DNA from: a virus | Taxonomy: Duplodnaviria; Heunggongvirae; Uroviricota; Caudoviricetes | Virus record (IMG/VR): IMGVR_UViG_2879765931_000007 | DNA length: 47,296 nt | Strand: one strand, 5' to 3' | In this document: positions 36,262 to 42,200 of the stretch, piece by piece | Layout: each line of letters begins with the position of its first letter | Numbering within the stretch: position 1 is the stretch's first letter | Made by a program: the position numbers

Positions 36262-39200
36262 TGACGCTCATCACGCAGTTGTTTGACCCATCTTGTCATT
36301 GTGGAAAGGCCAACATCCATAGCTTTGGCGGCATCTGCCACCGTGTATTTCTGGTCAACAACCAGTTGAGCGGATTCGCATTTAAACTCTGCGCTAAAAT
36401 TTCTTTTTTTCATTGGAGCACCTGTGTTGTTCTGAGGTGAGCATATCACCTCTGTTCAGGTGGCCAAATTCAGTGTGCCACTTCACGGAAACACCACTCA
36501 GGGTGTGCGTCATTCAGCAATTCAGCCATTTTACGCTTAGTCATCCCCCGCCCTTCATACCGTTGCCGGAGGACACTAATCAATCCAGGATGCTCTGCCA
36601 GCACCTCACTTATGACTCTATCAATACATAACGCCTCTGCATCAGTACAATGCGCCAGCCAGGTCTTTTGCTTGCCATTGATCATCTCTCGCAAAAACGC
36701 TTCCAGCTCAGGTTTCTCTATTCCCGCTTTTTTCATCCTGCGCAGGGCTTCATTGACGGCTGTTTTCGTCAATTTTTTGGATGCCAGCAACTGGTTAAAC
36801 ATATTTCCCGTCTTACCGCCGCCAATATACGACCAGCGCCCCCACATGCGCAGTTTTCCCTGAATCCAGACACTTTCCAGCGTGGTGAGACGAAGGTGTT
36901 CCCCGCTTTTGCCTGTATTTGTTGGGTAAATCATAAATAACCTTCCTTTCTCCAGATTTCTTGTGTGCGAAAAACACCTTCTGCATGCATCAGGCGTAAT
37001 TCTTCTTTGGTGTAATCGCTGGTTTTTACCCGCCCGTCGATTAAATCGTGGCATGAGCTACAGGCAATCGCTGCCTGCATATCGTGTGGTTTTGTCGCTG
37101 TTCCGCACGTCCCCGCCAGCCTGTAATGCGCCAGCACAGAAGTTTCGGGATTGTGATTGCAGTAGCCAGGAATTCTGACGGTGCACATCTGCCCCCGCGC
37201 CGCTTTACGTAAATCCACCATTACGCAAACTCCAGTAACTGCGCGGCCACATTTTCGACTTCCTCCGGAGAGGAAAATTTACGGAACAGGATCCAGTTCC
37301 ACAGCACATTCAGTACAGATTTATAAACCTGCTGAAACTCGGTTTCGTCCATGTTCGCAAATGCGATAGATTTTGCCCTGCGCCCACGACTACCATCAGG
37401 ATAAATATGCTCGGTGTAAAATCCGGCCTGAATGGTTACCCACTCGCGGAAAGCGTCAAACGACTTTAGCAATGCCGTATCCCGGGTTCTGCATGTCGCA
37501 ACTGTATTAAGGTATTGCTCTGCGGCATCACTCAGGGCTGGAGTGTGTTCCCGACCTACTGATTCGCACAGGTAATCAACGAAGCCTGATACCAGTTTTC
37601 GTTCGCGAGGCGTGATCGCCCCACCGACCGGAGTCCAGTAATCAAATCCCAGTTGCAGGAGTTTGAAAAAACGCTTGTGGAATGCGTAGTTACGCACACG
37701 CTTAAAGTCTGCGTGTATCCACTCACCTATTTTGATTTGATGCAAAAAATCGCAACTCTCCGGCGTCGCCGGGAGAAGTAATCCGGAAGAGGTTTGTTTG
37801 ACCAGTTGTATATGCGCCATCGTAGTTCTCCGCTGGCGCAGTAGAATGGGTGTTCAGCCCGTTATGTAGTATACCAGAATTAATGCCAATACTAACAGGG
37901 TAATGCTGCCAACTTACTGATTTAGTGTATGATGGTGATTTTAAGGTGCTTGCGTGGCTTCCATTTCCATCAGATGTCCTTCCTGCTCCGCTACTGAAGG
38001 CGTGGTGCGTAACGGCAAAAGCACTGCCGGACATCAGCGCTATCTCTGCTCTCATTGCCGTAAAACATGGCAACTACAGTTCACTTACACCGCCTCTCAG
38101 CCCGGTACGCACCAGAAAATCATTGATATGGCCATGAATGGCGTCGGATGTCGCGCCAGCGCACGCATTATGGGCGTTGGCCTCAACACGGTTTTACGTC
38201 ACTTAAAAAACTCAGGCCGCAGTCGGTAACCTCGCGCATACAACCGGGCAGTGATGTGATTGTCTGCGCTGAAATGGACGAACATTGGGGCTACGTCGGT
38301 GCTAAATCACGTCAGCGCTGGCTGTTTTACGCGTATGACAGGATACGGAGGACGGTTGTGCCGCACGTCTTCGGTGAACGCACTCTGGCCACACTGGAGC
38401 GTCTTCTGAGCCTGCTGTCGGCCTTTGAGGTCGTGGTATGGATGACGGATGGCTGGCCGCTGTATGAATCACGCCTGAAGGGAAAGCTGCACGTTATCAG
38501 CAAGCGTTACACTCAGCGCATTGAGCGACATAATCTGAATCTGAGACAACATCTGGCAAGGCTGGTACGGAAGTCACTGTCGTTCTCAAAATCGGTGGAG
38601 CTGCATGACAAGGTCATCGGGCATTATCTGAACATAAAACACTATCAGTAAGTTGGAGTCATTACCTACTAACAGGATGCTCTGACTCGCAATTCATCCA
38701 GCAGTTTATCATTTCCCATAATGTCACTTACCCTCATCGGTAAAAAAATTGCCTTTCGACCATTACGATACATTATTGATTTTGGGGTTTCAGGGAAGTA
38801 ATCCATTTCGACTATAACTGACAGGTCATCACGACGTATGACTGCGTATTTGCTACTAAATAGTTTCTTTATTTTTTCCACGATGCCCCCAGGTTTATAA
38901 GTACAAACGGTTATATCCACATAGAGACAAAAATATTAATCTGATAAATATTTATTTCACGCCGTATATTTGATTGTTTAATGTGCAAGTACAATGACTT
39001 TTATTTTTTGTTGTGTATATAATCAAATATATGGTTATTTTTCACCCTGCGTATTCAGCACGCAACAAAAAACCCGCCGAAGCGGGTTTAGTGCGGGTGC
39101 GTTGAGGATGCCTGACACATGAGAGGTGGCGAGGGATTTCTCCCCCGCCTGGTCTCTTACTCCTCAGGTTCGTAAGCTGTGAAGACAGCGACCTCCGTCT

Positions 39201-42200
39201 GGCCGGTTCGGATTCGTACCTCGCAGAGGTCTTTCCTCGTTACCAGTGCCGTCACTATGACGGTTAAACAGATGACGATCAGGGCGATTAACATCGCCTT
39301 TTGCTGCTTCATAGCCTGCTTCTCCTTGCCTTTCGGCACGTAAGAGGCTAACCTACATTTGTGAGACATAGATTGGGCCTCAGATTAATGTTAAGCGTCT
39401 TGCAGGACGCGTAATGTTAACTGGGGCTTTTCTCTGTCTGCCTTACAGTGGCATGCCCGAGGCAGACAGCCTCAAGCACCCGCAGCAATCTTACCGATAC
39501 CGATAAGAAAACGCTATTTTTTATTGCCAGCACCTTCTATCCAGGCTAATTTATCTGCGTCAGAACGGCGCAATGCGCTCGCCTGAGATACGTTTACTTG
39601 CCATGGTAACAACAGGTAACGGCAATTGCTGTTTCTGTTTTGTTTCCTTCAAAAACCCCGGACCATCAATCCGGGGTTTTTGTTTGTTAACCCCAACGGC
39701 AAATCGAATACACCACCAGCGCCACCGCCATCGCAATTCCTACCGTGGTGAATGCCTCAGGCCAGGTCATTGATTCACCTCCTGCGGTGGTTCCGGTAGC
39801 GGCATCCAGTGAGTTGAGCTCTCTACTTCAACGCCGTCTTTGTCCACAAAAGCCATCTTATTCCCGCCACGAGTGGGGCAAAAAACCTTATCCCAGGAAC
39901 CGGGGAATACATTCCCGAGATCATCGAGAAGAATCACATCGCAATATTCAGCAGGAACTGCATCACTACAGCTTATCCAGCCAGCCAGAGTTACCGGAGA
40001 GTTGCCAGCCTTACGCATGGCCATTTCCACGATTTCAACCATATCTCCTGGTGGAATTTTACAAAGTTGCCCAATACATTTCTGCTGCCTGGCATATTCG
40101 AGAATGTGCTCCAGTTTGGTTCGATTAATCATTATTTATCTCCCTTAAGCATGGCAGCGCGGCAGGCGTTCCAGCCATCAACATAATCAAACGTATTACT
40201 ATCGTTTGGCCCGATTTCATCCGGCACTATCGGCTCTGGTTGGATAGTGACGTTGGCAAAGGCAGCACGCAAACCGGTTTTAATTTCTTCGATTTCATCA
40301 GAGCCAAGCGATGAATCTGACAGTGCGTGATGGAATGCGTAAGCCATGTCGTCGTTTACTGCAACCGGCACTGCCGGCGCTGCGTAAAGCGGTGTTATAT
40401 CTGCCCGAAAATCACATGCTTTATGCAGTCGTACCCAACGCTCAACTTCCGCTTTGTAAAAATATATAGCAGTGAACGTATTAGATTCCTGGTCAACTTG
40501 AGTAAACGTCACCTTCCACGCTACAGCTACGGCTTTCCATCCATCAGGTTGTCGCATTCGCGGGGCAGCATAAAGCTCATGCATTCCATCAGGCAGCGAG
40601 TGACCCACATACTCACCGAACCCGTCAATACACATGCCCCCATCTTCAACAATGCATTCCGCTACAGGCTCTGCTTCCAGTGATGCCAGAGCGATAAGCG
40701 CCAGTTCACGAATTTCACCGCCGTCTATATCGTCAATATCATCGCGGCCAGAAATGTTAGCCAGCCATTGCAGTCGCTCTTTGGTAATAGTAGTCATGCC
40801 GTAGCCCCTTCTTGATATTTTTCAAACCAGAACACAACCGGGTCAGATTTCATTTCAACCAATCCCATACGAACCAGCGCTTTGCCTTTCCCGGACGCAA
40901 GGAATTCACGACGACCATCACTGATAATTCGTCGATAATCTTCCAGGCTACTGCAATGCTTGTGCAGATTGCATGGGTGGCATTCTGGTACCATGTTGGA
41001 TATATCGTCACGTTCCTGGTGAAGCATATTTCCATCAAAACGAATGACCGGTTTTACATGGTCTGCATGCCACTTTTCGCCAAGTTCGCAGCCGCAATAA
41101 GCGCAGCGACCACCGAACTTCATGCGCAGTTCTGCACGTTGTTTTTTCGTCAGTGCCATATCAGCTTTCCTTATACGGATTAATTTTATTGTGCAGTGTG
41201 TTGAATGACGCCCATACCACGTCGTTATACAATTCAATAACTGGCTCAATTATTTTTCCGATTATCCAGACAAAAATTTGCGGGGATATCGGTGTCATCA
41301 ACACGATAAACAGAATGAGAAACAGGAATTCTGTTGTTCTACTCTTTCGCGGATATTTTTTTCTAAATAATGTAACCATTCATTACCGCCCTTTCGGGCG
41401 GTCTCCTGATGATTTGAGGGTGCAGAAATCCCTCCGGTTAAGGATTAAATTTTTAACAGTGCTAAATTTAATTATTCAGTTCTGGATTTTGTCGCCCTGC
41501 GTATCCGCGCTTTCGCGTTACGCTCAATCTGTATCAGCTTTTCTATATTTCTCCGCCTTTCCTGTTCCTCCTGGCGCAATAGCCTTACATCATCTGCCAG
41601 TCTGGTTTCTCTTTTTGCCACAGAGAGCATCCAGTCAAACGGCTCCACAACCGCACCGCAGATTTTACAGCGGACCTGACGCTCTTTTTCGTCAACCCGT
41701 ACAGAGGCGTGATGGCAATATGGTCTTTCCGATGGCTTATAAAGAAAATTAACCTGATTACGAGGGTCATCCTCTTTTATCGGAAATAAAACGATATTGC
41801 TTAACTCATCTTCTGGTTTTATTTCCATGCTCCTCTCCTTTGATGCGAATGCCAGCGGTAATTGAAGCCTGATAGCTAATTTCATTCACAGTATCGCCTC
41901 CTGAAAATTACCCTGATAGAAAGCCAGTACACGCTGCATAGCTTCGCTCTTCCGGCACTCGCGACAGATTATATTCAGGCGCCTGTCGTAGCGGCGTATT
42001 TCTCCGTCAGGTAATGACCAGATAAGGTCCGGATCAACAACAACCGGTTTCCTCACCTTTACTCTCGAGAGTTTTTTGCGGGCGCTTTGCCAGTCCTTGC
42101 GAGCCTGTTCAGACGGGAATAAGCCGTAGCCAGAATTATATACATCACCACTTGCGACCAGTTCTATGCATAAGCGACCGACAGACGCACGACTGATACC

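Follow-up and report, generated by a model that had tools for sequence, protein, structure and literature searches.

In the hok/sok system of R1, a stable hok mRNA is kept inert by pairing between its 5′ tac and 3′ fbi elements, and 3′ trimming of the transcript leads to refolding and then to translation of mok followed by hok. The short-lived Sok RNA blocks the mok start region, with the result that cells losing the element are killed. Other type I toxins, including TisB, DinQ, ShoB, Ibs and Ldr, are similar in size to the peptide considered below; toxins of this kind are 26–35 amino acids (aa) long. Single-pass membrane microproteins such as KdpF, AcrZ, MgtS, MgtR and CydX modulate larger membrane proteins, and they serve here as an analogy for mode of action only. 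This analysis concerns a locus where a hok gene of the first kind lies beside an open reading frame (ORF) of 27 codons for a hydrophobic peptide. It is found in a caudoviricete virus record, IMGVR_UViG_2879765931_000007, whose 47,296 nucleotides (nt) are referred to in full as the window.

On the reading preferred here, to which a probability of roughly 0.8 can be given, the locus consists of two independent modules set side by side, namely an intact hok/mok/sok cassette and a real gene for a 27-codon membrane microprotein, with functions predicted from sequence. Both lie on the minus strand in the nin (P-to-Q) region of a lambdoid prophage riddled with insertion sequence (IS) elements, and the 27-codon gene is the last cistron of an Ea22/DUF551 accessory-gene block. 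The original prediction, made from the DNA alone, had described a hok locus with a coupled 27-aa hydrophobic peptide that could be a second small membrane toxin or a lysis-related peptide missed by standard annotation.

The hok part of that prediction stood throughout. The whole hok/mok/sok cassette was delimited by Pfam, Rfam and folding to 39062–39483 (minus strand), and no IS element interrupts it. Its 51-aa toxin gene (39157–39312, minus), taken from the ORF list and by correspondence to hokW of phage 933W, is a Hok/Gef member by its match to Pfam HOK_GEF (PF01848; E=1.2e-23; 82.9 bits, cut-off 22; all 42 profile positions covered). The mok and Sok elements expected upstream are where they should be. 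A mok-type frame of 70 codons (39157–39369, minus; ORF list) is in frame with hok, shares its stop and maps exactly onto the annotated mokW of 933W, while the hok mRNA leader (39307–39481, minus), with the Sok target and the mok translation initiation region, matches the Rfam model RF01794 “sok” at 118.1 bits (gathering score 59; E=7.8e-28; model positions 1–157 of 157). Alignment to hok/sok loci, which had been proposed as a check, placed the putative Sok antisense RNA at 39361–39431 on the plus strand by homology to the sokW misc_RNA of 933W, where it overlaps the mok start codon and the mok Shine-Dalgarno (SD) sequence. A candidate Sok promoter (TTGCCT-17-TAACCT, 39326–39354, plus) was read by eye and a candidate hok −10 element (TAAGAT) is suggested at 39489–39494; the consensus scan flagged neither.

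The fold-back structure is also in place. In both the minimum free energy (MFE) and the centroid structures, 14 nt of a tac element at the 5′ end of the predicted hok mRNA (39470–39483, minus, GCGGGUGCUUGAGG; MFE fold) pair with an fbi element near its 3′ end (39093–39107, minus, CCUCAACGCACCCGC; MFE and centroid folds), just before the terminator. The predicted 422-nt hok transcript (39483 to 39062) has a folding free energy (dG) of −181.2 kcal/mol, with z=−7.3 against 100 shuffles. The terminator foreseen downstream of hok was found by the terminator scan and by folding at 39070–39089 (minus), with an 8-bp stem and a T run (dG −15.7, z −4.4). As a side observation, the hok 3′ untranslated region and terminator (39067–39148, minus) give a sub-threshold match to isrK, a Salmonella prophage small RNA in Rfam (30.6 bits; gathering score 50; E=2.6e-4), probably owing to the hairpins. 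Weak Rfam matches to isrK, STnc30, rsmX and others (39067–39154 and 39580–39688) were set aside, as they fall below the gathering scores and are driven by two terminator hairpins.

The cassette is 92–98% identical in DNA to hokW/mokW/sokW of 933W and agrees with it in the 51-aa toxin, the 70-codon in-frame mok, the leader structure, the Sok position and the tac–fbi pairing. It differs in possessing its own canonical terminator, whereas the 933W sequence diverges after fbi, and in its nin-region location, the 933W cassette being at the right end of the prophage. Hok loci in thousands of E. coli genomes and in Stx (Shiga toxin) phages likewise match its DNA at 92–98% identity. To judge from these matches it is a complete, intact type I toxin–antitoxin module of the hokW/sokW type, with activity predicted by homology; as such it is already known, being one more copy of a well-studied prophage addiction module.

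The second module is less familiar. The 27-codon gene (39687–39770, minus; ORF list and conservation) encodes a predicted single-pass hydrophobic microprotein, MTWPEAFTTVGIAMAVALVVYSICRWG, and lies in the early nin region between the replication genes and a Q-like antiterminator. Upstream is a gene for a 121-aa, Ea22-family mosaic protein with a DUF551 domain (39767–40132, minus; Pfam DUF551 E=3.4e-19; match to phrog_924), and the Prokaryotic Genome Annotation Pipeline (PGAP) annotation of a 97.9%-identical locus likewise gives the upstream gene as DUF551. Just as had been noticed at the outset, the TGA stop of this gene overlaps the small gene’s ATG as ATGA. An SD sequence, AGGAGGT (39777–39783, minus; read from the sequence), stands 6 nt 5′ of the ATG, within the last codons of the DUF551 gene. 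Because of this strong SD in the last codons of the upstream gene and the overlap of ATG and TGA, translation of the small protein would most likely follow, by coupling or reinitiation, every time the early phage operon is transcribed. With a mean hydropathy of 2.1 over residues 6–24, the product is predicted to form a single hydrophobic helix of about that extent. A topology with the N terminus out and the C terminus in, in the inner membrane, is suggested by the positive-inside rule, since Glu5 lies on the N-terminal side and Arg25 on the C-terminal side.

The original prediction would have been abandoned had the ORF lacked conservation in homologous prophages; conservation proved strong. 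A degenerate-pattern scan of IMG/VR gave 120 loci, which together with other public loci made a set of 127 copies, representing 54 different DNA sequences and about 30 different peptides. The pattern fixed M-[T/I]-W-P-E-A-F and C-R-W and left a free gap of 45–51 nt between them; the gap is 48 nt in every copy, hence there are no indels. The length is exactly 27 codons in 125 copies, and the stop falls at the same codon throughout, as either TAA or TGA. All 127 copies have an SD core 5–11 nt 5′ of the ATG, which in 114 is GGAGG. The ORF can thus be judged more than a chance occurrence, because start, stop, length and SD are kept in 125–127 of the 127 copies despite unrelated flanks.

Selection was gauged over codons 8–23, which the pattern left unconstrained. 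There, in frame, the proportion of synonymous differences (pS) is 0.215 and that of non-synonymous differences (pN) 0.089, an excess of more than 2-fold (pN/pS 0.415), and the ratio in the other two sense frames is 0.99 and 1.31. When distinct changes are counted once, 29 are synonymous and 31 non-synonymous, where 29% synonymous would be expected (p=0.0013). Across copies, 98% of the residues at positions 8–23 stay uncharged. The peptide of phage pPE4 is identical to that of the window and is encoded with four synonymous differences, and ArgO145 also encodes the identical peptide, its DNA changes being synonymous only.

It could be argued that the ORF is untranslated, and that the 84-nt block is kept for a nucleotide-level reason, as a recombination “linker”, an RNA element or an opposite-strand ORF. 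It is true that mosaic boundaries fall exactly at either end of the block, that stops are rare in two antisense frames and that no inspected RefSeq or phage record calls the ORF. Still, the synonymous excess appears only in the sense frame and in the antisense frame that shares its wobble positions, and the sense ORF keeps its ATG, SD, exact length and stop position even while the stop switches between TAA and TGA. Replacements in the peptide remain hydrophobic, and the alifold consensus of the block is weak (−12 kcal/mol). The antisense frames lack any conserved start or stop, their flanks being unrelated, and an antisense ORF across the block was rejected on this ground. A purely nucleotide-level explanation consequently seems improbable, and by the general criteria for small genes the 27-codon ORF qualifies as a genuine protein-coding gene.

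Several points pull the other way and temper the case for a real microprotein gene. Purifying selection is moderate (0.42) and is estimated from only 16 free codons of related sequences; the conservation of the N- and C-terminal motifs in the pattern set is there by construction; and tblastn matches at 60–90% identity lend only partial independent support. One antisense frame, sharing wobble positions, has an equal synonymous excess (p=0.0013). The peptide string is absent from the searchable literature, the peptide does not appear in the Sakai small-gene or Enterobacteriaceae microproteome supplements, and neither Ribo-seq nor a proteomic record was found as direct evidence of its translation.

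The flanks of the gene are a patchwork. In E. coli 12089, DNA homology to the window ends exactly at the ATG of the 27-codon gene, and a different upstream gene (...VEDVLR*) overlaps that ATG, again as ATGA. The genes upstream are mosaic proteins of the Ea22/DUF551 type with at least four unrelated C-terminal modules, exemplified by the DUF551 protein (...PEPPQEVNQ), a protein ending ...NGLISVEDVLR, the coiled-coil protein L0139 (...NIEQKVNQ) and a protein of phage Av-05 (...KKKGMNQ). Except where a contig edge truncates the copy, the ATGA nearly always closes a long ORF (121 of the 127). The 15–20 nt bearing the SD (39771–39790 in the window) move together with the small ORF, and it is because these roughly 20 nt travel with the small gene that unrelated upstream proteins share the tails ...EVNQ* or ...EDVLR*. 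Seen from the neighbour’s side, the C-terminal tail of one gene is dictated by the initiation region of the next.

Downstream, about 20 unrelated sequences start directly after the 27-codon stop, among them several different intrinsic terminators, the hok promoter region or simply a next gene. In 933W, the ORF overlaps the stop of L0139 and is followed 41 nt on by sokW/hokW. In pPE4, the sequence 3′ of the stop is unrelated to that of the window and has no terminator; in the lytic Vequintavirinae phage Av-05, the ORF follows a 220-aa gene and no hok lies downstream. An IncY P1-like plasmid carries a variant peptide, MSWPEAF...CRWW, with the next gene beginning 5 nt later. In ArgO145, a different terminator and an opposite-strand type II toxin–antitoxin pair follow (L006, 1582–2220). 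A terminator with such a type II pair stands in place of hok/sok after the small gene in 13 IMG/VR loci, which suggests that addiction modules land repeatedly where the Ea22 block ends.

In the window, what follows the small gene is the strong bidirectional intrinsic terminator that had been described from the outset. Located by scan and folding at 39650–39682 on both strands, between the 27-codon gene and hok/sok, it has a 13-bp stem with A5/T5 flanks, begins 4 nt after the 27-codon stop and has dG values of −23.7 (minus strand) and −21.2 (plus strand), with z of about −4.8 for each. The terminator would end the early transcript at that point, and it would shield hok/sok from read-through and the small gene from transcription coming from the Sok side. 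This terminator is not integral to the small gene, because it is present only in the roughly 17 of 127 copies with this downstream context (16 plus one variant). Between it and the cassette is a spacer of about 165 nt (39484–39649) with the presumed hok promoter, found only in this arrangement and absent in 933W and pPE4, where hok/sok comes 41 nt after the small-gene stop.

Since the stop codon (39687–39689) is only 4 nt from the stem starting at 39682, and a hairpin stands immediately behind the stop in several other downstream contexts as well, the ORF might be imagined as a regulatory device, in which a ribosome at its stop hinders the hairpin and tunes read-through into hok/sok and the distal nin genes. 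Selection acts, however, on the amino-acid sequence and not merely on the presence of an ORF, and a conserved transmembrane helix would be unneeded for a leader function. Moreover, no terminator is present at this position in the largest context class (52 copies of the 933W type), in P1-like plasmids or in Av-05, where the promoter region or next gene comes directly after. Such attenuation is very improbable, and it is insufficient as an explanation because it leaves the amino-acid conservation and the terminator-less copies unaccounted for.

A functional link with hok, with the peptide as a second membrane toxin or a lysis-type peptide, deserves more attention, given that its size and hydrophobicity resemble those of type I toxins and that hok/sok occurs within about 300 nt downstream in 85 of the 127 copies. 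The intervening distance is 41 nt in 51 copies, 204–205 nt in about 14 (as in the window) and 216 nt in 15, with a few further away. In the 15 loci of the 216-nt class (e.g., L014 and L109), the gap is filled by a second tiny hydrophobic ORF of 34 aa, MSDDISLAMEGALAVIAVVGVYCLVVFLMDRLGN, with its own SD; a hairpin and then the hok promoter region come next. Some prophages, in other words, have a tandem of two unrelated genes for membrane microproteins immediately before hok/sok, a circumstance that can be counted in favor of a link.

The remaining 42 copies have no hok within that distance, however, and the identical peptide occurs without hok (26 copies), with hok at 41 nt (23 copies) and with hok at about 205 nt (10 copies). 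Because the same peptide is found in all arrangements, including those with no hok, the small ORF is to all appearances independent of hok. The coupling that had been proposed therefore holds for the upstream Ea22/DUF551 gene and not for hok. The frequent association looks like the outcome of common descent and of a favored insertion site where the Ea22 block ends, not like a functional unit.

Nor do the surroundings of the gene suit a toxin. No conserved flank adjoins it in which an antisense RNA gene or a promoter specific to it could lie, the consensus scan showed no promoter-like site near the ORF on either strand, and the plus-strand terminator blocks antisense transcripts from the hok side. 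The 27-codon gene resembles TisB, DinQ, ShoB, Ibs and Ldr in encoding a small hydrophobic helix, and it adjoins a genuine type I system. Unlike them, it has no antisense RNA, own promoter or long structured leader, and it is embedded by the ATGA overlap inside a long operon, with both flanks variable. Of the traits of a type I toxin, only the small hydrophobic product was found. For a holin or lysis peptide the location is wrong, as the gene lies in the early nin/ea region, not beside the endolysin in a late lysis cassette. No toxin, holin or PADLOC family matched the peptide. Both of the roles first suggested, second toxin and lysis-related peptide, are accordingly unlikely, and the product is probably not a killer toxin.

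With the two modules thus regarded as independent, the small gene may be placed among known proteins. Like KdpF, AcrZ, MgtS, MgtR and CydX, which are about 25–50 aa long, its product has one hydrophobic helix with short polar ends. Such microproteins are often encoded by an operon's final cistron, which is coupled in translation, and KdpF and CydX are encoded with their partners. No sequence relationship to them was found (KdpF gives E=0.024, below the cut-off), and no fixed partner is evident, the upstream genes encoding soluble Ea22/DUF551 mosaics of at least four types. The gene belongs to a known kind, the small single-pass membrane proteins, and is not a new kind of system. The product is proposed to act early in infection or induction, by binding a host inner-membrane protein or by altering membrane function in another way, in the manner of known bacterial and phage microproteins.

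More tentatively, and with somewhat less than an even chance of being right, the ORF could be the founding member of a previously undescribed family of phage membrane microproteins, each carried as a mobile cassette of SD plus ORF and acting early on a specific host inner-membrane target. The cassette would rewrite the last codons of whichever Ea22-family gene precedes it (...EVNQ* or ...EDVLR*), and possible effects include a block to superinfection, a change of membrane potential or an effect on division. Such a family would span about 29% of complete E. coli genomes, lambdoid and Stx phages, P1-like phage-plasmids and a lytic Vequintavirinae phage.

The distribution of the gene is indeed wide. 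A tblastn search found the peptide in 94 phage records at 60–100% identity, and, of 5426 complete E. coli genomes, 1557 carry the 84-nt DNA, at 2432 places in all, 161 of them on plasmids. Carriers include Stx and lambdoid phages, P1-like phage-plasmids and the lytic Vequintavirinae phage Av-05. Most of the plasmids are non-mobilizable replicons, about 90–100 kb in size, and their hosts are E. coli, E. albertii, E. fergusonii and Salmonella; the plasmid inspected is the IncY, P1-like phage-plasmid, which is related to Salmonella phage SJ46. The gene is by these matches carried by many phages of E. coli, Shigella and Salmonella. A 40-aa query (the peptide plus 13 in-frame upstream codons) matched only unnamed calls from Escherichia, Shigella and Salmonella. 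When genome contigs were scanned with a pattern that omitted the ATG, five of the 120 matches listed were real, the rest being chance matches in GC-rich genomes; two of the five are contigs of about 400 bp in assemblies of Xanthomonas pisi (L155, 431 bp) and Acinetobacter idrijaensis (L211, 369 bp), most likely assembly contamination, and the others come from E. coli, Shigella flexneri and Escherichia sp. MOD1. A local tblastn search for divergent paralogues returned only “LGLFSICRW” matches, all fortuitous and lying antisense to the hok leader.

The suggestion that standard annotation had missed the ORF was borne out by its conservation and by the records inspected, as neither RefSeq (PGAP) nor the phage records among them annotate it. 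Some GenBank submissions do call it, as a 27-aa “hypothetical protein” or “bacteriophage protein” (AOM45384.1, ASL59396.1). These entries are identical or more than 75% identical to the peptide and represent the same gene, sporadically called, with no function, family or curated model attached. RefSeq has an N-extended 45-aa call, WP_250221393.1, and several calls start wrongly, in an alternative frame of the DUF551 gene, or carry the misnomer “DUF551 domain-containing protein, partial”. Searches of Pfam-A, PHROGs v4 and NCBIfam 20 gave no above-threshold match for the peptide (the best below the cut-off being DUF883_C, E=0.042; phrog_4612, 0.019; and KdpF, at the value given above), and PADLOC gave no match to it. 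Papers on DUF551 make no mention of a small downstream ORF. The 27-codon gene is, on the comparative evidence, a genuine, widespread and essentially unannotated phage microprotein gene.

The surrounding prophage shows many signs of IS activity. A complete IS1 of 768 bp with InsA and InsB ORFs (37899–38666, plus) is bounded by a 9-bp target duplication, TACTAACAG, present as direct repeats at 37890–37898 and 38667–38675. It is inserted exactly at the stop codon of an 83-aa phrog_1813 gene (38669–38920, minus), with a DUF1367 gene on its other side, and polar effects on the distal nin genes and the Q-like antiterminator are to be expected. An IS3-family element with ORFs of 100 and 272 aa is present in two copies of opposite orientation (33584–34740, minus; 45661–46817, plus) that flank the prophage early region, and a third IS3-family transposase of 279 aa with an rve domain lies at 35245–36449 (minus). 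The IS3-family copies and the IS1 together point to a decaying, IS-riddled prophage of a sort typical of Shigella; DUF551 proteins differing by one residue have been recorded from Shigella sonnei and S. flexneri.

Two further features of the neighborhood can be mentioned. Four tRNA genes, Gly(tcc), Thr(tgt), Arg(tct) and Met/Ile(cat), lie at 32512–32822 (minus), downstream of the Q-like gene, in the position where phages of the Stx type carry tRNAs. An HNH endonuclease gene (40794–41249, minus) in the same accessory block as the small gene gave weak PADLOC matches to the HNH protein PtuB of Septu (E=3.4e-7), a similarity that probably reflects merely the shared HNH motif.

The hok/sok cassette adds nothing new to what is known of such modules, and the small gene is of modest importance. 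According to a paper on Ea22 (PMC10834534), the Ea22 accessory-gene blocks, which correspond to the exo–xis region in lambda and Stx phages, influence the lysis–lysogeny decision. The 27-codon gene lies in accessory-gene blocks of this type, as a conserved phage microprotein gene that the standard annotation inspected omits even though it is widespread, including in the Stx phages of enterohemorrhagic E. coli. Effects of deletion or over-expression that have been credited to its Ea22/DUF551 neighbors could partly stem from this overlooked cistron.

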